DNA from: Narcine bancroftii
Taxonomy: Eukaryota
Length of the DNA: 64,000 bases
Assembly (NCBI RefSeq): GCF_036971445.1
Contig: NC_091480.1
Location: 71,548,001-71,612,000, forward strand
Direction: 5' to 3'
Shown here: positions 12,599 to 57,243 of the stretch, piece after piece
Position numbering within the stretch: the stretch's first letter is position 1
Layout: each line of letters begins with the position of its first letter
The notes under the pieces: generated by a model
Seen by the model: the letters and a program-made list of their open reading frames with translations, nothing else
What the model was told of the DNA's origin: nothing
Database searches by the model: none
Position numbers and translations under genes: made by a program

Positions 12599-12837
12599 GC
12601 TGGCGGCCGCTGCTCGCTGGCAACCTGTGAAAGAACCCAGAGAAGACCCTGAACACGCAGCCTCCTTGGATCCGATCAACACACAATGGAGCCGAGATCG
12701 GCCCTTTTCCCGGGTAAATCAGGCACCGCTCTGGGACGGGACTCGGGCCGGTCGCTCTTGGCCGCACTGGTTTCCGTCGGATCTCGGCCTGACCCCGCTG
12801 TCAGATACAGGGAGCGGCGGCGGCGGCTCTCACCGCC

Positions 12838-13345
12838 CGGCTCGGCGGCCTTTCCCCTCCTCTCCCCCCCCCCCACCCCCGGGGCTCGGCGGCCTCCTCT
12901 CCCCCCCCCCCCACCCCCGGGGCTCGGCGGCCTCCTCTCCCCCCCCACCCCCGGGGCTCGGCGGCCTCCTCTCCCCCCCCCCCACCCCCGGGGCTCGGCG
13001 GCCTCCTCTCCCCCCCCCCACCCCCGGGGCTCGGCGGCCTCCTCTCCCCCCCCCCCCCCACCCCCGGGGCTCGGCGGCCTCCTCTCCCCCCACCCCCGGG
13101 GCTCGGCGGCCTCCTCTCCCCCCCCCCCCCACCCCCGGGGCTCGGCGGCCTCCTCTCCCCCCCCCACCCCCGGGGCTCGGCGGCCTCCTCTCCCCCCCCC
13201 CCACCCCCGGGGCTCGGCGGCCTCCTCTCCCCCCCCCCCACCCCCGGGGCTCGGCGGCCTCCTCTCCCCCCCCCCCACCCCCGGGGCTCGGCGGCCTCCT
13301 CCCCCCCCCCCCGGGGCTCGGCGGCCTCCTCTCCCCACCCCCGGT
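12838..13345. repeat. GC-rich minisatellite in CDC6 intron 1, ~14 copies of ccccggggctcggcggcctcctct(c)n-a (~32-42 bp unit)
   Basis: Directly visible tandem array. The core is near-identical and the C-run length varies. Confidence 0.95.
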
Positions 13346-13361
13346 TCTCTCCCGCTGATAC

Positions 13362-14208: not shown

Positions 14209-17200
14209 TGTGGTGGTCCACCACCGGCCTACTGCAGGGGGCAACCTCTATACCTGCAGGTGTGTAAGGGGACAGGACAACACCTAGCCGGCTGCCAATC
14301 TGGGCCTGAATAGATCAAGCCCCACCCGGTCAGGGGTCAATCACCCTCCGGGATATAAGCCTGTGCCGGCCTCCCGAGGCCTCACTCAGAGTTACTGCAG
14401 CCATGGCCAGCCTGGCTCTGTGGAAGTCTTTGTGGATTAAAGCCTGTTGTACAGTCTTTACCTTGTGTGTGTCTGATTCTGGCTAACAGCGCACCACAGT
14501 TTAATCCACAAAATTTTCCCACGACTGCCATGAAAAAACTCCTGAGCACAGGGAGCCTCGAGGTCGACCCATGCCACCCGGAAGCCCAGACACGCTTCGA
14601 GATCTGGCAGCACGCAGTCGAGGAAATCATCGAGGCACATAAGGGCGACATCCTGGACTCCAATTAGAAGAGGTTGGTCCTACTCCGGTCAAAGCTGGGT
14701 TCCCGCGCCTTCCAGGTAACCAAAGGCTGCTCCACGTACAAGAGCGCAATAGACACTCTCAAGATCTTGTACAAGCCCCCCATGAATGTGGTCTGTGCAA
14801 GGTACTTCCTCAACACCCGAGCCCAGCAACCCGGGGAGTCGGCTGAGTCTTACCTGGGGCACTTGCGAGAGTTGGCCCGACCGTGTCTGGCTGAACCTGG
14901 GGTAAGTGTAGAGGAGGTCGAGAGGCTGATCCGGGACGCCTTCGTCCGAGGGCTACGCTCAAGGGTCATCCGGCAGAAGCTGCTGGAAGACATCATCTAT
15001 GCCCTAACCAGGTCTGTGGAAGTGATCCAAACCCTGGAAACAGCAGCCCTGCCTGTCGAAGACTTCGATTCCGGGTTCCCCCAGGCTTCCTCATGGCCCT
15101 CTCACAATGCAGCTGCAGCCCCAGGCTGAGATGGGGAGGAGAACGTCACTGCGGCAGGCGCCCAGCGCCCCTGTAAGTACTATGGGTCCTGGTGTGAGTC
15201 AGATCGACGATCGCGCCAAAATTGCTCAGCTAGGAACCAGTATTGTTCCCAATGCAGCAAGAAAGGCCACTTTGCAAAAGTGTGCCTCTCTAAACCTGCC
15301 GGCAGCTCAGCGGCTCTCTATGACCTCCCTACCTCCCCCGCAGACCCACCCCCCCCCCTCCATGTGCGCATGCCGGGCTGTGTCATTGTCTCCGTGACAA
15401 CTTCCGACTCCCCGACTTCGACCGCGCAACATCCGGCCCCGCCAGCAACCGTCGCAGCATGTGCTCCGAGCATCTGCACCAGTCCTCGCCGCTCGCTGAA
15501 AACTACAGCGACATCACTTCCGGCTCATGGCGTGACGTTACTTCTGGCTGACGTAACAACATCACTGCCGCCGGCTGTGATGACGTCACTTCCCCTGGTG
15601 CAGCGGACACGGCTGGGGAAGGAGGCCAGCCACGCAGCAGCTCCCTACGTGCCGCTGCCATCTTGGGCCAGGTCACGCCCGACATGGAGGGACCCCGACG
15701 ACGTTGAGAATGACGTGGTCAACACGGGCGATGATCAGGCCGCCCTACCGACGCCCCTCACGCCTCCAGGTGCCATCAGCTGCCGCACACCCCACCCAGT
15801 GACCGACGACAATGTGGTCAACACAGGCGATGACCAGGCCACCCTATCGACGCTCCCCATCCCTCCGGATAGCGATGACTCCGAGATGGTCCTGGCCGCC
15901 ACCATGCTGACCAGGGACATTCCCCACGATCTCGGGCACTCGATGATGGACATGCGAATCAACGGGCAGGTAACAAAGTGCCTGTTGGACAGTGGCAGCA
16001 CCGAGAGCTTTATTCACCCGAGCGTGGCCCAATCCCTACCACTTGCTCGATCGCCCTCGCCACCAAGGATAAGACTGTTGGTACCATCGGGTGCTGCTCA
16101 GTCGATATAACGGTGGGAGGGGAGACTTACACAGAATTCAGGCTCCTGGTCATGCCCAAACTCTGCGCACCACTCCTCCTGGGCCTGGATTTCCAGTGCC
16201 ACCTGCAGAGTGTCACCCTTGCCTTCGGGGGGGCCCCAACCTCCACTCACATTGCACAGCAGGCCAACCTACCAGCCCCGGCCAACCTGTGGTCTCTCCA
16301 CATTGCACATCACCCCACCAGCGCTCTTTACACATCTTGCGCTAGGCTGCAAGCCGATTGCCGCCAGAAGTAGGCGCTATTGCGCTGCAGACAGGGTCTT
16401 CGTCAAGGCGGAGGTGCGGCGACTCCTGGTGGAAGAAGTTATAGAGTCCAGTAACAGCCCTTGGAGAGCCCAAGTCCTGGTGGTCAAAGGGGGAAGTAAG
16501 CCAAGCCGAGGATGGACGTGGATTACAGCCAGACCATTAATCGGTACACCCAGCTGGATGCCTACCCACTGCCAAGGATCGCCGATGAGATTGTCAATGA
16601 GATTACCCGCTACCGGGTTTTCTCCACGATTGACCTGAAGTCGGCGTATTACCAAATCCCTATCCACCCGAAGGACAAGTCCTACACCGCCTTTGAGGCG
16701 AACGGGCGCCTGTACCAGTTCCGCCGGGTTCCTTTTGGGGTCATGAACGAGGTCTCCGTCTTCCAGCGGGAGATGGATCGCATGGTAGACCGGCACAAGC
16801 TGAAGGCGACGTTCCCATATCTGGATAATGTCACTATCTGCAGCCGTGACCAGCAGGACCATGATGCTAACCTGGAAAAATTCCTCCAGATGGCCGCGGA
16901 GCCGAACCTCACTTACAAGGAAAAGTGTTCAGCACCACCCGCCTCGCCATCCTGGGATACATTGTGGCCCGTGGAGTCGTCGGCCCAGATCTGGAAAGGA
17001 TGCGCCCATTAATGGAGTTACTCCTTTCCCCCCTTACCCCCCCCCCCACGCTAAAGGCCCTCCGCAGGTGCCTGGGCCTGTTCTCTTATTACTCGCAGTG
17101 GGTCCCTTGCTTCTCAGACAAGATCCGCCCACTGGCCCAAGCCACAACTTTTACCCTCCCACCTGAGGCACAGGCAGCCTTCACCCGCATCAGGCAAGAT

Positions 17201-19159
17201 ATCGTGGATGCCATGATGCAGGCTGTCCATGAGGACTCCCCCTCCAGGTGGAGAGCGATGCCTCCGAGGTAGCCCTTGCTGCTACCCTCAACCAAGGGGG
17301 GGGGCGCCCCGTCGCCTTCTTCTCCAGGACCATCCACGGCTCCGAGCTAGGGCACTCCGCCATTGCAAAGGAGGCCCAGGCGATTATGGAAGCGGTCTGC
17401 CACTGGCGCCACTACCTGACTGGCAGGAGATTCACACTCCTCACAGACCAGCGGGCCGTGGCATTCATGTTTAACACTACCCACAAGAGCAAGGTAAAGA
17501 ATTTCAAGATCCTGCGCTGGAGAGTCGAGCTGGCAACCTACAGCTACGACATCCAGTACCGCTCTGGGAAGTTTAACGACTCCCCTGATGCCCTCTCTCA
17601 CACCTGCTCGTCTATGCATGACGACAGGTTGCAGGCATTGCATGAGTTCCTCTGCCATCCGGGCGTCACCTGGTTGTACCATTTCGTTAAGTCCCGAAAT
17701 CTGCCGTACACCATCAGGGTCGTCAGGGACATGACCGAGGCCTGTCGGATCTGTGCGGAGTGTAAACCCCGTTTCTTCCGCCCACCCCAAGGCCTATGTT
17801 GTAAAGGCTACTCGGCCTTTTGAAGGTCTTGGCGTGGACTTCAAAGGGCCCCTGCCTTCCACGAACCGAAACGTCTATTTCCTCACGGTAGTGGACGAGT
17901 ACTCACGCTTCCCTTTCGCCATCCCTTGTCCGGACACCTCCATAGCCACCGTCATCAGGGCTTTGGAGCAGATATTCACCATGTTTGGCTACCCCGCCTT
18001 CATCCACAGCGACCGGGGGTCTAGGTTCATGAGCAACGAGCTACGCCAGTACTTGATGGCGAGGTGTATTGCGACCAGTCACATGACAAGCTATAACCCA
18101 AGAGGCAACGAGCAAGTGGAATGCGAGAATGGGGTGGTCTGGAAGGCAGTCCTCCTGGATCTCAGGTCAAAAGGGTGGGCTGTTGAGTTCTGGCAGGACA
18201 CCCTGCCTGAGGCGCTCCATGCCATTCGGTCACTACTGTGCACGGCTACCAATGAGACCCCTCATGAACGTCTGTTCTCATTCCCCAGGAGGTCGGCGAC
18301 TGGAATGTCACTCCCAGCATGGCTCACGTCCCCAGGACCGGTACTTCTGCATAAGCATGTAAGGACTCAAGGCTGAAGCCCTGGTGGAGCAGGTTTACCT
18401 CCTTCATGCAAACCATAACTACGCTTACATTAGGTTCGGCAGTGGCAGGGAGGACATCGTCTCAACCAGGGACCTAGCACCAGCAGGAGCACCCACCACA
18501 CCACGCTCCAACCCAGGACGACACTGACCGGGCATACATCCCTGTCTCCATGCAGCTATGGGGCACGCAGGGCCTCTTTGACTACCAGGGGCCTGCTTCA
18601 GCCTTGGGAGACGAACCTGCCCCCCCCCCCCCACCCATCCAATACAACTCGCATACGTCGGCCCTGGCCACCCCTCCGCACGGCGCCACACCAGCCACAC
18701 ACACCCCTGCTGCCAGACTCTCCAATTGCCCTCTGACCAGTGACCAGGAGCCAGTCCTATGATGGTCACTGAGACCCCGTCTCAACCAGTAAATATTGTA
18801 TGTACAAGGTGGGTGCGATTCCTTGTTACTGCCCCCCTCCCCCGGGATAATTTTAAAGAAGTGGGTGAATGTGGTGGTACACCACCGGCCTACTGCAGGG
18901 GGAAACCTCTGTACCTGCAGGAGTGTAAGGGGACAGGACAACACCTAGCCGGCTGCCAATCTGGGCCTGAATGGATCAAGCCCCACCCAGTCAGGTGTCA
19001 ATCACCTTCCGGGATATAAGCCTGCGCCGGCCTCCCGAGGCCTCACACTAAATTGTTGTAGCCACAGCCAGCCTGGCTCTGTGGAAGTCTTTGTGGATTA
19101 AAGCCTGTTGTACAGTCTTTACTTTGTGTGTGTCTGATTCTGTCGAATGGCGCACCACA
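14209..19159 (+). mobile_element. Near full-length Ty3/Gypsy (Mag-like) LTR retrotransposon, family A. LTRs 14209-14498 and 18870-19159 (290 bp each, TGTGGTG...CACCACA), PPT ~18855-18867, degenerate TSD attcc/attac.
   Basis: Two LTRs ~92% identical by manual count. gag (CCHC KKGHFAKVC), protease LLDSGS, RT YLDN, RNase H SDAS..EKEA-like, and integrase HHCC + DDE in gypsy order. Confidence 0.95.
14530..18560 (+). pseudogene. Disrupted gag-pol of the family A element
   Basis: ORF fragments 14467-14667, 14674-15129, 15280-16110, 15978-16373, 16512-17012, 16925-17272, 17248-17823 and 17753-18376, separated by stops and frameshifts. Confidence 0.9.
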
Positions 19160-19904: not shown

Positions 19905-20206
19905 TGTGGTGATACAACCACTGGACTGTCTATGACTGCCTGCGCCTGTCCACCCTCTTGCATGCATTGCCTCCTGCAGGGGGTAACCTATTGTACCTGC
20001 AGGGAGGTAACCTGGGAGACTGGCTCCACCTACTCCCTGCCAATCACCGGCCCCACATAAAGGCTCATGCTGGCCCTTGGGCAGGAGCGGAGCACACAAA
20101 GCCAGATGTGATACAGAACCTTGTATGCAAGTTTTAAGCTAATTAAAGCCTGTAATACAGCCTTTCGTTGTTTGTGCTTGTTTTATTCACACTGCAGTAC
20201 ACCACA
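19905..20206 (+). mobile_element. Solo LTR, family B, TSD CTCAT
   Basis: TGTGGTG...CACCACA termini, perfect 5-bp TSD, homologous to the LTR at 24296-24590. Confidence 0.9.
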
Positions 20207-20642: not shown

Positions 20643-23600
20643 TGATGCACAATCAATTACACAAAGACTGAAGTTACCGTGGTTGAAGGCATTTATTTAC
20701 AAGAGATAGACAGCATCCCTGTGTTGGTCGCTCACACTGACCCAGACTCGAACTGGGGGCAGGGTTGAGGCATGACAGCCTTTATGGGGGAGAAAGGGGA
20801 GGGAGACCAGGGTCAACCAGGTAAGGTCATGACATTTACATATAACGAATATGTACAATGGTTTCACCACATTCACCTCCTCTTTTGAAAGAAAAGTCCC
20901 GGGGGGGGTGTGGTGTCAGCTGACATCATAAGTTCAGTCAGTCCGGCAGTCTCATTTGGCGTTGTGACTGGCACATCCCCATCCAGGGGCCATGGCGGTC
21001 TCTGTTGGTTCTAGCTGATCCATCTCGGTTGGCCTGGCAGGGGTACTTCACTGAGCTGGGATGCGTGTGTCAGTTGCCGGGTTGGCAGGGATGGTGGGGG
21101 TGGGGAAGTTAGGCCCCGGAGAGCTAGGGGAGGGGGGTACCTGTTGGCTGGTTGGAGGGGGGTCCACATAGTCCTGTGTGTGCCAGGTCCAGGATGGATA
21201 CTGGGTCCTCACATCTGTCTGGGAATGCCACGTAGATGTACTGTGAGTTCATGTGGAGCAGCTGGATCCTCTTGACCAGAGGGTCAGATTTATGTGTCCT
21301 CACGCGTCTGCAGAGTAGGACTGGCCCGGGGAATGTCAGCCAGGTAAGTAAGGTGGTTCCCGACACCGATCTCCTGCGGAATCTAAACAGTCTCTCATGA
21401 GGTGTCTCATTGGTGGCTGGATAGCGTGGGAGCGCCTCTGGGAGGACCTCTTGCCAGTGGGGATGGGGAGGCCCTTGGACTTTAAGACCAGTAGTACTGT
21501 CTTCCAGACCATGCCGTTCTCCTGCTCCGCCTGGCCATTCCCATTGGGGTTATAGCTGGTGGTCCAGCTAGAGGCAATATTCTTGGACAGAAAATATTGA
21601 TGTAGCTCGTTGCTCATGAAGGATGAACCCCTATCGCTGTGGACATAGTAGGGGCACCCGAAAATAGTGAACAGTTTGTTCAGAGCCTTTATGATGGTAG
21701 CTGTGGTCATATCTGGGCAGGGCATGGTGAAAGGGAACTGCGAGTACTCATCGATGATGGTGATGAAATACACGATGCGGTTCATGGAGGGCAGGGGTCC
21801 TTTGAAGTTCATCCTTAGATGTTCAAAGGACCAAGTGGCCTTGATCAGGTGTGACCAGTTGGGCTGGTAGCACAGTTTGCACTCCACACAGACCTGGCAA
21901 TTTCTGGTCAGCGACCTGATGCCTTGATGAAGTGAAAAAATGGGTGATCTCAGGGTGGCAGTGCCTGCAGGCGATCCATCTGTGCACTGGAGCACGACCC
22001 TCGAGACAGGGCATACGAGGGCTCATTGAGCTTTCCGGGCCAGTACAGTATGTCGTAATTGTAGGTGGAGAGTTCAATTCTCCACTTCAGGATTTTTGAT
22101 TTTACCCCGCTGCTGATTGTTGAACATGAAGGCGACTGCTTGTTGGTCAGTCAGCAGGGTAAAATGCTTACCGGTGAGATAATGTCTTCAGTGCCGTACC
22201 GCTTCAACGATAGCCTGGGCCTCTTTCTCAATGGAGGATTTCTCAATGGGGCCCTGGAGAGTGCGTGAAAAAAACTCTACAGGCCTGCCCGCCTGGTTAA
22301 GTGTGGCAGCCAGAGCCAAGTCCGATGCATCACTCTCCATCTGGAACAGGATGGACTCTTCCACTGCGTGCATTGCGGCCTTTGCAATGTCAGCTTTGAT
22401 CCAGTTGAATGCCTCATTGGCTTCTGCTGACAGGGGGAAGTTGGTGGCCCTGATGAGGGGTCGGGCCTTCTCCACATAGTTGGGGACCCACTGAGTGTAA
22501 GAAGAGAAAAAGTCCAGGCACCTTTTCAAGGCCTTGAGGATTGGGAGTTCTCGCAGGGGGCACATGGGGTCAGGGTCGGAGCTAATGTCTCCATTCTTCA
22601 CAACGCAGCCTAGTGTAGCCAGGCGACGTGTGCTGAAGACACACTTTTCTGTGTTATATGTCAGGTTGAGGCGTTTTGCGTGTGGAGGAATTTCTGTAGG
22701 TTTCTATCATGGTCTTGCTAGTTGTGGCCGCAGATGGTGATGTGGTTGAGGTATGGAAAAGTGGCCCACAGTCCGTGTTCGTCCACCATCTGATCCATTT
22801 CCCTCTGAAAGACTGAGACTCTATTCATGACTCCAAAAGGGACCCTTAGAAAATGGTAAAGTCAGCCATCCACCTCGAGGGCAGTATACTGGTGGTCTTC
22901 TGGATGAATTGGGAGCTGGTGATACGCAGACTTAAGGTCTAGGGTGGAGAACACCCTGTATTGTTTGATCTGGTTCATCATGTCGGCTATGCGGGGCAGG
23001 GTATATGCATCCAGTTGGGTAAACTATTGATGGTCTGGGAGTAATCTATGATCATCCACTCTTCACCACCACTTCCTGGGCACTCTGTTCTATCATCCCC
23101 TCAGTGAGGAGGCGTCTCACCTCTGACTTAATAAATGCCCTGTCCCCGGTGCTATGTCACCGACGTTTAGTGGTGAGATTGGCAAACAGGGGTGGGGGAA
23201 AGATCCGGAGTGTGAAGAGGCTGCATGATGGATGCAGGGATTGGGTTTTGGGATGATGGTTAGCTATGTGATGAGAGGAGGACAGGCGGTTTAAAAACTG
23301 CTCGTTACAGACCATGAGGGGAGGGTGGGGCCCATCGTGCTCCATGGTGATGCTCTTCATGTTACACTGGAAGTCTAATCCAGTAGGATAGAGGCACAGA
23401 GCTGTGGCAGTATGAGGAGTGTAAAGTCCCGGTATACTATGCCCTGGACAGTCAGTGTTACCGTACAACTGCCACGAATCTCTGCCGAGTGAAATTTGGA
23501 TGCCATGGCATGCATCGTGGCATTGTCCTGTCTGATGTGGGCGAAGGCCACTTGTGCCTCCATGGGGAGGTGAAAGGTGGTGGCTGGGCCAATGGGCAGA

Positions 23601-24590
23601 CCTTGTCTGAGAACTAGGGGACCCACTGGAGTAGTAAGAGAAGAGCCCTAGGCACCTGCGGAGGGCCTTGAGCATGTGGGGGAGGAGCAGTTCCATCAGG
23701 GGGCACATGTGTTTGAGATCTGGACCGATGACACCATGTTCCACGACGCACTCAGGGATAGCAAGGTGGGTGGTGCTGAACACGCACTTCTCCCTATTGT
23801 AGATGAAATTTAATGCCTCTGCCGTCTGGAGGAACTTCTCCAGGTTGGCATCATGGTCCTGCTGATCATGGCCGCAGATGGTGACATTGTTCAGGTAGGG
23901 GAAGGTCACTCTCAGGTTATGTTGGTCTACCCTACGATCCATCTCCCTCTGGAACACAGAGACTCCATTTGTGACCCCAAAAGGGACCTGGCGGAACTGG
24001 TAAAGGCGCATGTCAGTCTTGAAGGCAGTATATGGCTTAACCGTGGCCTGGATGGGGAGCTGGTGATAGGCCGACTTTGAGTCAATGGTGGAAAACACCC
24101 TGTCCTGGGCTATCTCGTTGACTATGTCAGCGATGCGGGGCAGTGGGTAGGCGCCCAGCCTTAGTGCGAATAATTGCCCCGACTGAAGGCTTCCAGATCT
24201 CGGAGGGCTGGAGCTTCCAGACGTTGGTGGTCGATATCCAGTTTTTCTATGCTGAGAAACTTCTCCATGGTTCTTTAAAATTAAGCTAATTAAATTGTGA
24301 TGCATTGCAGTGCAAACAAACAAGCTTAAACCACGAAGGCTGTACTACAGCCTTTAATTAGTTTAAAACTTGCACACAAGGTTCAGTATCCCTTCTGGCT
24401 CTATGTGCTCTACTGCCTACATGAGAGCCAGCATGAGCCTTTATATGGGGCCAATGATTGGCAGGGTAGATGGAGCCAGTTTCCTAGGTTATCTCCTTGC
24501 AGGTACAATGGGTTTCCCCCTGCAGTAGGCAGTGCGGAAGTGTGGACAGGTGCAGGCAGTCACAGACAGTTCAGTGGTTGTATCACCACA
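20643..24590 (-). mobile_element. Chimeric Gypsy (Mag-like) relic. Family B 5' LTR (24296-24590), gag stub and RT (~24160-23510), fused to family C PR-RT-RH-INT (~23505-21150), PPT and family C 3' LTR (20643-20871).
   Basis: ORFs 23157..24323, 23375..23626, 22188..22601 and 21336..21995. Two RT cores. The terminal LTRs are non-homologous and there is no TSD. Confidence 0.85.
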
Positions 24591-25848: not shown

Positions 25849-27424
25849 GCCTCGACTTTAAAGGCCCGCTCCCTTCCTATGACAGGAACGTCTATTTCCT
25901 TAATGCCATAGACGAATACTCCTGCTTCCCTTTTGTAATCCCATGTCCCGACGTATCGGTAGCCACGGTAATAAAGTGCCTGCAATCCATTTTCAGCATG
26001 TGTGGGTACGCCGCCTTTATGAGTGCCAAAGTCCAGCAGTACCTACGGGATAGAGGCATTGCCACCAGCCGCACCACAAGCTACACTCCCAGGGGTAATG
26101 GGCAAGTAGAAAGGGAAAATGCCACTATCTGGAAAACCATCCTGTTGACCTTAAAGGCAAAATACCCACCCGTGGAAAGATGGCAAGATGTGTTACCTGA
26201 GGCTTTGCATTCTATACGCTCGCTGTTGTGTGCCGCCACTAACACAACACCACATGAACATATGTTTTCCTTTTCGAGGAAAGCCACACTGGGCACAGTG
26301 CTGCCTAGATGGTCATGACACCGGGACTGGCACTCCTCTGGAAGCACTGCAGGCCCCACAAAATGGACCCACTGTTGGAGCCAGTGGAGTTGAGGCACAT
26401 GAACCCCCACTATGCATTTGTCGCATTCAGGGATGGATGGGAAGACTCAGTGGCCACCAGGGACCTCACACCAGCTTGAATCGTGGACGACGCAGGAGAG
26501 TCGCAGACTTCTACAGATCAGCACCAAGGAATCATGGACGACGCGGGAGAGTCGCAGACCCCGTCGGATCAGCACAAAGGACAACAGACACCAGGACAGC
26601 CAACCATCGCATCACCCCAAAGGGCCCCACCAAACAATACACCCCCAACAACCAGTACTCGTACGGAAAGCCATACACCCCCTCAGCATACTCCCACGCT
26701 GCAACCAATGGGAAGCTCTACACCCACTCAGCATACTCCCACCCTGCAACCGAAGGAAAGCCCTACACCCCCTCAGCATACTCCCACCCTGCAATCGACA
26801 GGAAGCCCTACACCCCCTCAGCATACACCCACCCTACACCCTCACAGCATACCCCCATCCAATGTCAGGACCCTTGGCCCTCAATACCCTATACTCCCCC
26901 TGCCCCAGTACCCCGAAGGTCCAGGAGAAAAAGGAAGGCCCGTCAGATACTGGACATATGAACTTACGGGGTGGGGGGGTGGGGGAGAGGTCAAAATCCT
27001 TAAGGGGGGGAATGAATGTGGTGATATGCTATTACACCATTAGGTCACCAGGTGCCACCACCTGACCACCTTGTATATAAAGCCGACTGGAGCTAGGCCC
27101 CTCCATTCTGACCCAGGCTTGCACAGAGGCAAGACCTAGATGTATCTATTAGTGTGTTGCGCTGTTAGACAGAATCAGACACACACAAGGTAAAGACTGA
27201 ACAACAGGCTTATAATCCCGGAGAGTGATTGACACCCGACCGGGTGGGGCTTGATCCATTCAGGCTGACTGATTGGCAGCCGGCCAGATGTTGTCCTGTC
27301 CCTTACACTCCTGCAGGTACAGAGGTTGCCCCCTGCAGTAGGCCAGTTGTGTACCACCACAATTAGTCTATTAAAACTAGCGTTGAACTTGCACTCTGTC
27401 TCGTGTGGTAAATGTGTCATCACA
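25849..27424 (+). mobile_element. Gypsy 3' fragment, family D: integrase core, repeat-rich tail, PPT and 3' LTR (27017-27424) interrupted by a nested LTR
   Basis: ORF 25818..26318 (LDFKGPLP...IDEYS...GNGQVEREN). aaggggggg-aatgaa|tgtggtg boundary; the LTR ends catcaca. Confidence 0.88.
27153..27361 (-). mobile_element. Internally deleted family A solo LTR nested in the family D LTR, TSD ATTAG
   Basis: Reverse complement of 14209-14498 lacking ~81 bp. attag at 27148-27152 and 27362-27366. Confidence 0.92.
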
Positions 27425-29770: not shown

Positions 29771-30769
29771 GAATTGGACGTTGTCACAGGTCAATGTCCA
29801 GGATCAGAAAGAGGGGGGGGGGGGAATGTAATAAAAGGACACAAGTGGCTGTGTGTTGCTTTCCCCTTCCTATCTCCATACTTGGGGACTTTCCAGATGC
29901 TGGTAGCAGGTCTCCAGGAACTTTGTCGTAAATTCTGGGTTCCTGAATATGGAATTATGCCTGTGGACTCAAACTCAGGCCCTTCAGGGTAATGTGAATT
30001 GACTTCAAATTCTGAGTGTACAGCACTGCACATTGTCTTGGATAGTTAGCTCACTGGAAGATTCCCAAGTGTACTCTGTTAGTGATGTAGTAAGTGTCAT
30101 TGGGAGAGAGCATTTTTGGATGAAAAGTCCTCTTTGCATATGATATCTGTCCGTAAATGAACTATAGTTATGATCAAGGACTACTGGTGTAAACAAGATC
30201 TACCAGTGCATTCTAGTCTTCAAATGAAGCAGAAATATTGCTGCATTTTAAAATAAACTCCCATGTTTGGAAAAAAAACCTGTGGCAATTGCTCCACCAG
30301 GATCTAGTGTGGACTAGATGGGCAAAATGGCCTCCTTCTCTGTCATACCTTCTTATGAAGACAAAACTTTATGTCTCAACTTCAAGTTAGCACTAGAGCA
30401 CTCAGGAACTTATCTGAGTCAAAATATTGCCATACTCTCCCCCATCAAATGTGGTAGCTTTTGGAAGAGGCATCAAAAGAAAGCTCTATCGGGGTACCTC
30501 TGTGGAGGTACAGATTCTTTGCCAATATTTCTGTTATAATGTATAAATTATTGAGCGTGTGTAGTAGATATTTGATCTGCTCCAAGCTGGTGGAGTAATC
30601 GTTTTTATCATTGTTGAATTCTCATATGTACTGAGGTGCAGTGAGAAGGTTGCTCTATGCGCAATCTAGCTAATCAACACATATATAGTACAGCAATTAA
30701 GACATAGCATAGAGTACAGAGTTTCACAGAAAGAGATCAGTTAGAGCAGATCGAGGGCAAGAAATATTT

Positions 30770-31930: not shown

Positions 31931-33030
31931 AAGGGGGTGCTATTGGATGCTGGGACCTATCTGCTGATGGGGGGTGGTGGTGCTATTGAATGCTGGGACC
32001 TCCCTGCTGATGAATGTCAACACCATCCATCCCTCTGACATAGGTGATGAGGGTGCTGCTTTTATTGCATCAATGGAGGTGTCTTCATAAGAAGGTATGA
32101 CAGAGAAGGAGGCCATTCTGCCCATCTACTCCACACTAGATCTTAGTGGAGCAATTGCCACAGTTTTTTTTCCAAACATGGGAGTTTATTTTAAAATGCA
32201 GCAATATTTCTGCTTCATTTGAAGACTAGAATGCACTGGTAGATCTTGTTTACACTAGTAGTCCTTGATCATAACTATTGTTATGACCCAATCAGTCGGG
32301 ACTTTCACTGTAAAACTGATTCTGAACTTAGGATCTAGAAAAGCTAATATGTTTTGACTTCGTCCTTCTGGGATAATATTTCTGCTTTTACTTCATTTCT
32401 TCTATATTTTCAGGCGGACAAACCATATCCACTGAATATATTTTTAATGATATGACGATACATTTTTAACAGAAACTACATTCCCAATAAAGTAGGGAGA
32501 GCAGCTCATGTTATTTTCAGATACCTGCATCTGACGTCAATGCACTGATGCAGCTATCAAATGTTAAAAGCATCTCATTTCTGCATCATCCACTCAAAAA
32601 TGACAACCAGATGCATTCTGTCACCCACTGTATTTATCTCTTGGCTTTCAGCTCTAAATGATAAGAAACAATTTTTTGAACATCATTAAAAGTCAAATGA
32701 AAATGTTGTGTTTTAAAATTCTCGATGTTGCTTCTAGCTTAGATTAAAAAAAAACCTATCTACAGTATTTTCACAGTCCACATATGACACGCCAGAGGCT
32801 GGAATTTCATATGCAACGGTGCACAGTAACACAGTAACAATGATTCCAAATAAAATTCTGGAAGTATTCAGTAGATCAGACACTAACAGCGGACAATGAT
32901 AACATTTCAGATCAATGGTCATTCATCCGGTGTGCCTTCAACAGAGAAGGAGGGAAAAAAACCGAAATAAAAATCTGCTTTGATAAAAAGGTTCATGATG
33001 CTAATGAGAAAGAAGGTCAAAGTTCAGTTT

Positions 33031-41559: not shown

Positions 41560-42775
41560 ATTTCAATTATAAAATAAAACAATTTAATAGTTTAAAATGC
41601 ATATTTTAAAAATTATTCACCTCCATTCAAACAGTTCTGATATGCCATAGGCCTTGCTAGCACTCAAACCTTGCAGCAGTCTTCTGTGCTGTCGGCCATT
41701 GAGGTGCACTCACTCTATCCAGAGGATATGGAGGTGGTGGGTTATCACAGGGTGTGGTGTAAAACAGGGTAGCTTTGCTAGCAAGATCCTCCCCCCCCCC
41801 CCCCCCACCACCCTCTGAATCTATTCTACACTTCCATTTTATTTCTTGTTGACTTTGACATTTCTGTGCACATTACCCAGTTGCACATTGATCAGGTACA
41901 GCAGTCTGTGATGCACGGTTGCACTTTGGTTTATGCACTGATTAAATGTCGCAGGCGTTTAACAAAATCAATAGAAGCTGCAGAAGGTCTCCAACCTACT
42001 TCATCATTCAATAACATAACTCCATAGTTTTCGTCCACTAACCCTTGATTCGCAAGGAATTCAAAAACCTATGGATATCACCCTTCAATATGTCCAGCAA
42101 CTGCACATCCATAGGGTAGAGAAGATGAACGACCTTCCTTTAATCATGAACATATTTGACCAATAACAAATAGAAAACACAGAAATGCTGGAGGAACTCA
42201 GCTGGTCTCACAGTGTCCATAGGAGGTAAAGATATATAAGGCCTTCCTGACTCGACTTATTGCTTGAAGAAGGGCTCAGGCCCGAAATGACGATGATATA
42301 TCTTTACTTCCTGCGAGACCAGCCGAGTTCCTCCAGCATTTCAGTGTGTTTTTACTACAATCACAGCATCTGCAGACTTTAGTGTTTCACTCCACAATAT
42401 CCAATTGGCCAGAAAATTATATTGCATCAATCTATCAAAACTAATGTGCCGACATTTCCCAACACAGACAATACAGCTACGTTTTTGTGCTCTCCTATGT
42501 CTGTGGTCTGTTGCATGTAACGTCATGGAGTCATACAGCACAGAAAATGGCCCCTTGAACCAATCATCTATGACTTCAGGTGCCCCCCTACCTACGAAGG
42601 TCTGATATGATTTTTCAAAGTTACGACTGTTGTTATTTACTTTCATGTAATATGTTAAAGTGAGGTCACCACAAGCATTGTTGATTTTTCCAGAAACGTT
42701 GATAATTCCTCTAAGGTGAATTCTTTGTAGCCTACTTGGTCAATCACTTCTTTTAGTTCAGTCAGAAAGCTTGCA

Positions 42776-42968
42776 GGGACTGATACAGGGCTGTCAGGAG
42801 AGAGTGGGGCAGTGGGATCGGTGTTGGGAATGATAAAGGACTGTGGGGAGAGAACGGGTCAGTGCGATCAGTGTGGGGACTGATACAGCGCTGTCAGGAG
42901 AGAGCGGGCAGTGTGACCAGTGTGGGGACTGATAAAAGGCTGTGGGGAGAGAGCAGGGCAGTGGGATC
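42776..42968. repeat. Minisatellite of four ~50-bp units with A/B alternation
   Basis: gggactgatacag.gctgtcaggagagag alternates with ggga.tgataaa.g.ctgtggggagaga. Confidence 0.85.
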
Positions 42969-42971
42969 ATC

Positions 42972-56174: not shown

Positions 56175-57243
56175 AGTGGCCACAGATGGTGACATTGTCG
56201 AGGTATGGGAAAGTGGCCCGCAGTCTGTGTTCATCCACCATCCGATCCAGTTCCTTCTGAAAGACAAACTCCATTCGTGACTCCAAAGGGACCCTCAGGA
56301 AATGGTAAAGAGGCCATCCCCCTCGAAGATGGTATATTCCCAAGATGGCAGCCCTCGTGTTCCCCATGAGGTGGCTGCCTGTTTGCTGGAGAACGATTCA
56401 GTGTTGTGGACGGCCACCTCTAGAGTGTTCACTAGTTCAATGGTTTGAGTCGGCTCAGTTGTCTCTGTTCGAGTAGCCTCTGCCTCACATAGTCGGAGCA
56501 GACGCCTGTGTTACAGGCGTCTCTGATCAGCAGCTGTGTGTGCTGTTCTGCACCCACAGCCTGGCAGTTACAGTACCTTGCGAGCTCCTGCAGGGCCCTG
56601 ATAACGTCATTGAAGGTTTCCCCAGGTCGCTGCCTGCGCGAGTGGAGTGTGTGCCACACGTAGACCTCATTCACCTGGACTTTATACTGGTCCTTCAGGA
56701 TGTCCATGGGATCTCTGTACGTCTGGCACTCCTGGACCATCTGGTAGACCCGGTGCCCGATGTATAAGAATAGCAAATGGATCTTGTCCTCGTCGACCTG
56801 GATCGCAGCTGTGGAAGCTGTGAGGAACTTTTCGAAACAGTGGCTCAAGAGTGCGAACTTGTCGGCTGCCTCATGTTCTCTGGGTCAATTTCCAGGCGAT
56901 CCAACTTCATGTACTTGTTCATGTTCCGAAAAAAATTTTGCAAATAAAATTGATGTGCAATCAATTGCACAAAGACTGAAGTTGCCAAGACTGAAGGCTT
57001 TTATTTACAAGAGATGGTCAGCATCCCTGTGTTGGTCGTTCACACTGACCTGGACTCGAACTGGGGGCGGGCTTGTGGTATGACAGGCTTTATGGAGAAG
57101 AAAGGGGAAGGAGTCACGAGCTGGCCAGTGAGAGCAGGGTACAATAGTGGTTTCACCACTTTCACCCCCTCGTTTAAAAGAAAGTCCCGAGGGGTGTGGT
57201 GTGTTCAGCCAACCCTCAGATGAGTGATAGTGGTTTCACAACA
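56175..57243 (-). mobile_element. Family C Gypsy relic: LTR stub (57243), 3' UTR/PPT (57161-57215), LTR (56951-57160), gag (~56920-56430) and RT fragment (~56330-56175)
   Basis: LTR and 3' UTR homologous to 20643-20920. ORFs 56432..56848 (gag) and 56173..56367 (TFPYLDNVTICGH). Confidence 0.88.

Follow-up and report, generated by a model that had tools for sequence, protein, structure and literature searches.

The Ty3/Gypsy elements that are described here very probably prime reverse transcription with a segment of the R sequence of their own RNA. They were recognized in a stretch of 64,000 nucleotides of the Narcine bancroftii genome (contig NC_091480.1, positions 71,548,001 to 71,612,000 of the forward strand; hereafter the window), in which the primer-binding site (PBS) following the 5' LTR is complementary to a segment (P) within that same LTR. 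The complementarity recurs in 21 families, five of this genome (A to E) and 16 from elsewhere, and is a real, selected feature. Moreover, we regard it as probable that the RNA would fold back at its 5' end and undergo cleavage where the duplex ends on its 3' side, the capped fragment of 55-62 nt then acting as the primer (internal-cut self-priming).

A family B LTR and its primer-binding site

The first-pass annotation of the window reported that the minus-strand PBS of the family B element complements its own LTR (24353-24366) at 13 of 14 positions and a family B solo LTR (20134-20147) at all 14, across a loop of 58 nt. These observations were all reproduced, the spacing of 58 nt being made up of 57 nt of LTR and a 1-nt spacer. 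The relevant features are:

24296..24590, minus strand: family B 5' LTR, 295 bp, TGTGGTG...CATCACA, 83% to the solo LTR over 303 columns
24440..24445, minus strand: TATA-like box by sequence (TATAAA), CCAAT-like motif just upstream; putative function
24401..24414, minus strand: putative transcription start and 5' end of the primer RNA, at about 24414 (TATA+31), as suggested by the ends of early-stopping inverted B arms
24353..24366, minus strand: segment P within R, which pairs with the PBS and has ATTAAA (24358-24353) as its last letters; the self-primer is predicted to have its 3' end here
24295..24352, minus strand: 58-nt loop (rest of R, U5 and the 1-nt spacer at 24295); predicted template of minus strong-stop DNA
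24352-24338, minus strand: small hairpin opening the B loop, not significant across families
24281..24294, minus strand: PBS, complementary to P and without the TGG tRNA signature
19905..20206, plus strand: family B solo LTR with a 5-bp target duplication and an intact P at 20134-20147

When any offset between 15 and 110 was allowed in the window copy, the top match comprised 11 of the first 12 letters. When the 125 nt upstream were shuffled 1000 times with dinucleotides preserved, this value was never reached (mean 7.5, maximum 10). In 30 distinct B junction copies, which were drawn from the best 30 of 40 listed matches plus other loci and are thus biased towards likeness to the window copy, the offset of 58 was the best, with 94% Watson-Crick pairs over 13 positions against 48% for the next-best offset and a mean of 26%. 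Pairing was complete (14/14) in 13 of these copies, 13/14 in 11, 12/14 in four and 11/14 in two. The single broken pair of the window copy, which had been ascribed to decay after insertion, can indeed be attributed to it, since the same position is paired in 25 of the 30 copies. The window's own B copy is predicted no longer to form the helix (helix probability 0.01, against 0.90 in copy L011).

The 'B element' turned out to be a B/C mosaic, consisting of a B LTR, the start of gag and one piece of the reverse transcriptase (RT), followed by a C-type pol and a C-type 3' LTR. The flanks of the mosaic agree at only 3/5 positions, so that it likely arose by nesting or recombination. Target duplications were found at 5/5 positions for the solo B LTR and at 4/5 for the family A element, and a purine tract precedes the 3' LTRs. 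The remaining parts of the mosaic and the two other instances of the pairing in the window, the last of which was absent from the list of the first-pass annotation, are:

24180..24268, minus strand: start of family B gag, thereafter deleted; 88% to B copy L019
23625..24155, minus strand: family B reverse-transcriptase piece (P0003; Ty3 RT E=1e-20; best match family B, 83%)
20871..23500, minus strand: pol of family C in a decayed state, from the end of the protease through RT and RNase H to the integrase, with the polypurine tract; top matches family C, 78-89%
20643..20870, minus strand: family C-type 3' LTR closing the mosaic
14209..19159, plus strand: family A element, P 14429-14441, PBS 14500-14512, loop 58
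56936..57160, minus strand: family C LTR 57160-56951, P 57012-56999, PBS 56949-56936, loop 49; third instance in the window

Upstream of the family C LTR that precedes gag, at 57160-57200 of the minus strand, there is a polypurine tract together with an LTR-start fragment (about 57240), an arrangement that looks tandem or shared-LTR-like. Elsewhere in the window, inverted repeats of about 200 bp (30160-30363 and 32080-32282, 93-98% complementary) enclose 1.7 kb and likely mark a DNA transposon, and tandem repeats are present at 12816-13359, 26665-26841 and 42757-42969, their units measuring roughly 37, 45 and 50 bp. An Rfam scan of the window yielded two sub-threshold chance hits only, and the window holds no tRNA gene.

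Pairing is maintained under sequence change

Within this genome (3.3 Gb) every family pairs at one offset. Per-copy percentages, which cover A, B, C and E, amounted to 97% for A (n=23), 90% for C (n=47) and 83% for E (n=18) besides the B figure given above, and family D also pairs at a fixed register. Families A and E can be aligned, and between them double changes are countable at positions 5, 8 and 12. The first-pass annotation had read the difference between A and B as compensatory change. That pairing is kept while the sequence changes holds for all 21 families, but the LTRs of A and B align in short patches only, so that this particular difference is not countable as compensatory. Within family C, position 9 was T-A in 20 copies, C-G in 16, T-G in five, C-A in one and otherwise in five (n=47); the variation follows subfamilies and takes four changes on the tree, one of which is forced by strong branches. 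The family C copy of the window (L051) and L061 form a supported pair (97) within the C-G subfamily and carry T-G and T-A at position 9, possibly an intermediate and a completed compensation. In the leaders of A and E (e.g. 14422-14426 with 14515-14519 in the window) the sequence 5' of P can form another short helix with the leader beyond the PBS, which is possible only if P lies internal to the RNA.

Outside this genome, relatives were collected from metagenome contigs. The upstream region was examined in 37 of the 88 loci and seven of these had too little sequence. Among the 30 evaluable loci, 21 showed a perfect run of 9-19 bp and seven an imperfect run as judged by eye, while in two (L148 and L150) neither pairing nor an LTR was found. 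The loci reduce to 16 families, for which the LTR end was set by an LTR pair in nine cases and by motif in seven. Taken together with the five families of this genome, cognate pairing at positions 5-12 averaged 7.81 of 8, as compared to 3.94 for 420 swapped pairs, none of which reached 8. In the shuffle test, 18 of the 21 valid rows (that of family E being the decayed copy E_L307) gave 0/1000, and the remaining three gave 2, 2 and 17. Some features hardly vary: the site starts 1 nt after the LTR, positions 2-3 are A-T pairs (21/21), position 10 is a G-C pair (19/21) and RCC directly follows P in 16/21 families. Loop length ranges from 23 to 87 nt. The 15 control elements of this genome with a TGG-type site, whose sites start with TGG, ATTGG or TAATTTGG, reached 6-8/12 and thus showed no self-pairing; AATAAA or ATTAAA lies within 110 nt of the LTR end in ten of them.

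The emphasis that had been placed on the poly(A) signal could be upheld in part. A canonical AATAAA or ATTAAA ends P in all five families of this genome, but in only seven of the 16 families elsewhere; L102 and L104 carry a canonical hexamer in the loop, 27 and 6 nt downstream of P, respectively. Since nine of the 16 foreign families have the helix but no canonical hexamer at the end of P, the helix and not the hexamer is the invariant of the clade. Priming is therefore very probably the primary role and masking of the poly(A) signal possibly a second one.

Several further patterns were noted. A helix opens within 3 nt after P in 14/21 families, but folding of the loop was not better than in shuffles overall (z<-1 in 5/21), and a conserved hairpin was discarded. 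L134 (about 150-235) carries a second LTR-end and PBS-like stretch inside its 87-nt loop, which makes two registers possible. Nine foreign loci (L101, L102, L104, L105, L109, L125, L134, L173 and L186) show a run rich in T followed by AG immediately ahead of the conserved G at pair 10. To judge from the sequence this could be an initiator (in which case the primer would be short, as in Tf1) or an acceptor site for splicing or trans-splicing. Pairing that depends on splicing was ruled out, since the helix spans the AG in the genomic sequence, and priming by tRNA halves was rejected on the covariation.

Fold-back insertions

If the element's own R supplies a primer that exceeds the PBS in length, plus-strand synthesis should at times continue along this primer beyond the PBS, yielding the LTR end, the spacer and an inverted R. 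Family D is young, with single open frames of up to about 1500 codons (RT search) and LTR pairs that are 94.5-100% identical (seven D pairs listed). Its roughly 900 normal 5' junctions and the many long open frames with identical RT score indicate a recent burst. A tight pattern recovered 117 of the predicted primer-copy junctions in D (reversed-pattern control 1) next to 912 normal junctions (control 2), and the family B search, which tolerated one mismatch, gave 14 (control 0). Position 15 was an A in 2/100 listed fold-back junctions versus 74/100 listed normal junctions, indicating that the letters beyond the duplex come from the LTR and not from the leader. Fold-back junctions are thus known for D and B; among the A, C and E loci that were inspected none was seen.

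Close inspection covered 96 of the 117 D junctions, in 93 loci. The inverted arm reaches the LTR start in 74 of the 96 and ends early in 22, always together with a complete left LTR. A 5-bp target duplication flanks 21 of the 27 complete D fold-back insertions, which shows that these are true integrations. The early ends are far from evenly distributed: 17 fall at LTR positions 137-164 (eight of them at 137-143), none at 120-136 and five at 14-119. When distinct events are counted, 15 of the 19 belong to the 137-164 cluster (p=1.5e-7 versus uniform). For comparison, the TATA-like T of the D LTR is at 109, an Inr-like TCATTCC at 139-145 and the end of P at 192. Most of the early-stopping D arms then run into sense-strand internal sequence. 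In family B, nine of the 14 arms reach the LTR start and five stop at TATA+31 or later, at window-equivalent positions 24414, 24411, 24408, 24401 and 24372 (the TATA T being 24445); the B arms are 72-90% identical to the solo LTR. The simplest reading of these ends would be that the arms were templated by an RNA whose 5' end is the start site, so that the primer would likely measure some 52-56 nt in D and close to 62 nt in B. Some caution is in place, as any plus strand that ends in PBS sequence, whatever the primer, would suffice for folding back to the LTR start, and arms that end at the start site could have been copied from a second RNA.

On the opposite side, 56 junctions leave the reference LTR after position 100. 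Host DNA joins, duplications of U5 and indels make up 19 of them. The other 37 are joins to internal element sequence and start in 33 cases at LTR 179-202 and in none at 134-178 (two pairs share a junction). This cluster fits strong-stop DNA that ends near a cut at the end of P. Nevertheless, 15 of the 33 joins fall within P itself (179-191) and thus past a cut at 192/193, which does not amount to a clean stop at the cut, and a polymerase that stalls at the helix could produce such a cluster as well.

Two other observations concern the ends of the copied DNA. In L362, L409, L420, L422 and L428 the fold-back junction is preceded by a tandem copy of LTR 189/190-240, which is exactly the loop and may represent repeated rounds of strong-stop synthesis. 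At L337 (G000:C5:53544484-53544508) two D LTRs are joined as CA-ATAA-TG, with 4 nt between the ends, the one case of this pattern in the genome; it is as expected of an integrated two-LTR circle or an end-joined dimer, and suggests 2-nt extensions with the primer end at pair 1 or pair 2. The contigs of four runs, which are not on record as RNA, yielded no information on transcript starts or ends; a loose A-rich end near LTR 203, seen in two contigs, was set aside as too weak as evidence for an RNA end.

Proposed mechanism

Transcription would start about 30 nt after the TATA-like box, as suggested by the motifs and the fossil ends. P would then pair with the PBS across the loop of 23-87 nt; here the complementarity and the covariation are direct observations and the fold of the RNA is a prediction. 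A cut near the end of P, in this genome at the poly(A) hexamer, would free a 3'-OH, for which the RNase H of the RT is the candidate nuclease by analogy with Tf1. Levin reportedly found in 1996 that this RNase H cuts the RNA duplex in Tf1. The RT would subsequently copy the loop only, and this strong-stop DNA, being short, would be transferred to the 3' R, the first transfer presumably making use of the stretch between the hexamer and the poly(A) site. The plus strand would in turn copy the primer and so rewrite the PBS. Where copying extends beyond the portion that matches the PBS, in the direction of the cap, the strand may fold back or jump, which would account for the observed insertions of LTR, 1 nt and inverted R. 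Finally, the same helix is predicted, as a secondary effect in this genome, to hide the hexamer in the 5' LTR only: the predicted unpaired probability of the last 6 nt of P was 0.01-0.10 with the PBS and 0.18-0.86 without it (A_win, B_L011, C_L052, D_L094 and E_L310).

Several other explanations have to be considered. That the pairing is a chance match of AT-rich sequence, or the inverted arms a fold-back artefact of sequencing or assembly, might be entertained on account of the composition of the B segment (12 of 14 letters are A or T) and the fact that long reads can fold back, but this is extremely improbable. Chance has already been refuted for the pairing by the shuffles, the swaps and the TGG-type controls, and artefacts would neither carry 5-bp target duplications nor have aged as the B arms have. 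If, alternatively, the helix serves to hide the 5' poly(A) signal and another RNA primes, the hexamer at the end of P in all five families here and the drop in its predicted accessibility with the PBS in five copies would be explained. The masking function, however, has no need for a site that starts invariably 1 nt after the LTR or for a helix in families without a canonical hexamer; elements of the TGG type whose AATAAA is 72-78 nt away from the end of the LTR do without such pairing, and 21 different PBS sequences that each track their own LTR leave no room for a single shared host primer. We therefore hold this explanation for very improbable. Plain Tf1 geometry, with a start at or near the first base of P and a primer of 10-16 nt, has in its favor that in most foreign families the conserved G of pair 10 lies in an initiator-like (T/C)(A/T)AG(T/C) context (A before the G in 12/16). 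It may apply to the invertebrate relatives. As an account of this genome it is very improbable, given arms that end at TATA+28 to +32, as far as 55 nt (D) and 62 nt (B) away from the P end, and the lack of a TATA-like motif about 30 nt before P.

A closer competitor retains the element's own R as primer but dispenses with the internal cut of the template, the primer being the 3' R of genomic RNA or a short LTR-polyadenylated R-only transcript that is trimmed to the duplex, in cis or in trans. All of the covariation is accounted for in this way; a short capped R transcript would have the same 5' end and give the same early-stopping arms, the hexamer places an RNA 3' end 10-30 nt from P, and solo LTRs are abundant. 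With an intact 5' R in the template, though, strong-stop DNA would be expected to end near 137-141, whereas the joins cluster at 179-202 with none at 134-178. In addition, a primer from the 3' R offers no reason for an edge of the arms at the start site, and the downstream hexamers of L102 and L104 would leave a longer tail to trim. Trimming or priming in trans thus appears unlikely, and internal-cut self-priming is preferred. The latter comes with a difficulty that Tf1 geometry avoids: a primer of 55-62 nt creates an overhang problem at the second strand transfer, which the normal pathway must solve.

A Gypsy clade without chromodomain

The family D protein P0004 contains, according to Pfam, a protease (464-549), RVT_1 (656-814), RNase H (876-1001) and rve (1085-1181). 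The protease-RT-RNase H-integrase order, the TG..CA LTRs, the polypurine tract and the target duplication place the elements within Ty3/Gypsy. No chromodomain (PF00385) was found in P0004 or among the domains listed for 120 homologues, whereas many of the sushi-type matches carry one. In a tree built from RT-RNase H with 49 rows, the lineage, represented by 24 of them, forms one clade (SH-aLRT 100), from which seven chromodomain-bearing sushi-type rows (SH-aLRT 100) and three tRNA-primed groups stand apart; it is a quick tree with a midpoint root and a long-branch warning, from which L186 and L187 were dropped as too short and in which Tf1 itself is not included. The tRNA-primed groups are presumably of the CsRn1, SURL (Mag-SURL) and Gmr1 types, as labelled by RT motifs. 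By these sequence comparisons the self-pairing lineage is a separate Gypsy clade that lacks the chromodomain. Its closest protein match (99%) bears the label of a ray species, and other homologues are labelled as shark, ray, whipworm and sea anemone. A gag search for longer homologues and a search for relatives among viral contigs were both negative. The sushi-type elements of this genome are few and decayed. As to a name among the published metazoan clades, such as MolGy1/2, Cigr-1 and Tor2, the RT motif did not turn up in the literature that was searched for it, which included PMC6238403 and PMC8220671, and no term matched in the accessible part of PMC8556966.

Comparison to known self-priming systems

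In Tf1 and Tf2 of Schizosaccharomyces pombe, Tj1, Tosmo and the Tf1/sushi chromoviruses at large, the PBS complements the element's own LTR instead of a tRNA, and the primer is the extreme 5' end of the RNA (accessible parts of PMC4600332, PMC11042837 and bioRxiv 2022.12.06.519325); about half of the Tf1 cDNA retains a copy of the primer (PMC11042837, in part). As far as these portions go, the lineage described here shares with them the gag-PR-RT-RH-IN order, the PBS that matches the own LTR and the probable copying of the primer into the plus strand. It differs in that P would begin some 40-50 nt downstream of the start of R, with the poly(A) hexamer as its end, in contrast to the RNA 5' end used by the Tf1 group, and in that it lacks a chromodomain and forms a separate clade (in the tree without Tf1). 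An internal position of the self-primer is suggested in D and B by the ends of the fossil arms and their spacing from the TATA-like box. The three-duplex 'pretzel' of Tf1 found no counterpart: a duplex between the loop and the sequence downstream of the PBS beat shuffles in 0/21 families, a test in which short duplexes could be missed. Only the decayed window copy did so (p=0.005), and the mean z for loop folding was -0.42. The lineage thus works like Tf1 self-priming but is no member of Tf1/sushi.

Self-priming has also been predicted from PBS-LTR complementarity for the plant elements Tcn1 (Gypsy) and TAR, Houba and Osr-1 (Copia), which belong to other hosts and lineages; the part of PMC6317226 at hand mentions neither a poly(A)-signal geometry nor fossil junctions. 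The dictyostelid Skipper has a polypyrimidine stretch in place of a PBS and the fungal GalEa a conserved hairpin site (PMC5006619 and PMC5445492, in part). Both likewise lack a TGG site, but both papers report having found no complement in the LTR, the very feature that defines the lineage here. Similar LTR ends are known from the CsRN1 clade (TGTGGYG...MSYYAMA; PMC3601003, Table 3, seen as an excerpt). The elements of this genome that we label CsRn1-type from RT motifs, however, have a TGG-type site without self-pairing and fall in another clade. With respect to the poly(A) signal, the HIV-1 poly(A) hairpin and retroviral suppression of the 5' poly(A) site provide a precedent, in that base pairing hides the hexamer in the 5' R. 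The hexamer would be hidden likewise here, with the difference that the masking strand is the PBS itself, which is present only 3' of the 5' LTR.

Implications

No description of the priming of this lineage was found in the literature that was searched, a body of work that excluded the original Tf1/sushi papers and most subscription papers. Self-priming has so far been assigned to the Tf1/sushi chromoviruses and a few plant lineages, Tcn1 and TAR (PMC6317226 and PMC4600332, accessible parts). The wider picture that suggests itself is a tentative one, to which we would give somewhat less than an even chance: a pan-animal Gypsy clade without chromodomain in which self-priming evolved independently of Tf1, and which in rays uses a long capped primer that is cut at the element's own poly(A) signal. 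One helix would then silence 5' polyadenylation, fix the cut site and guarantee homology for the first transfer. In the young family, roughly every ninth 5' junction that was integrated would be the fossil of a primer copied to the cap, so that primer and strong-stop ends could be mapped from the genome alone.

The geometry would differ from that of Tf1 by the internal segment, the long primer and the overlap with the poly(A) signal. Fold-back insertions provide a general, purely genomic test for suspected self-primers, as one can search for an LTR end followed by an inverted R and see where the arms stop. A separate and abundant animal clade of this kind, with members labelled as shark, ray, sea anemone and whipworm, would escape both the limits of tRNA supply and silencing by tRNA fragments.
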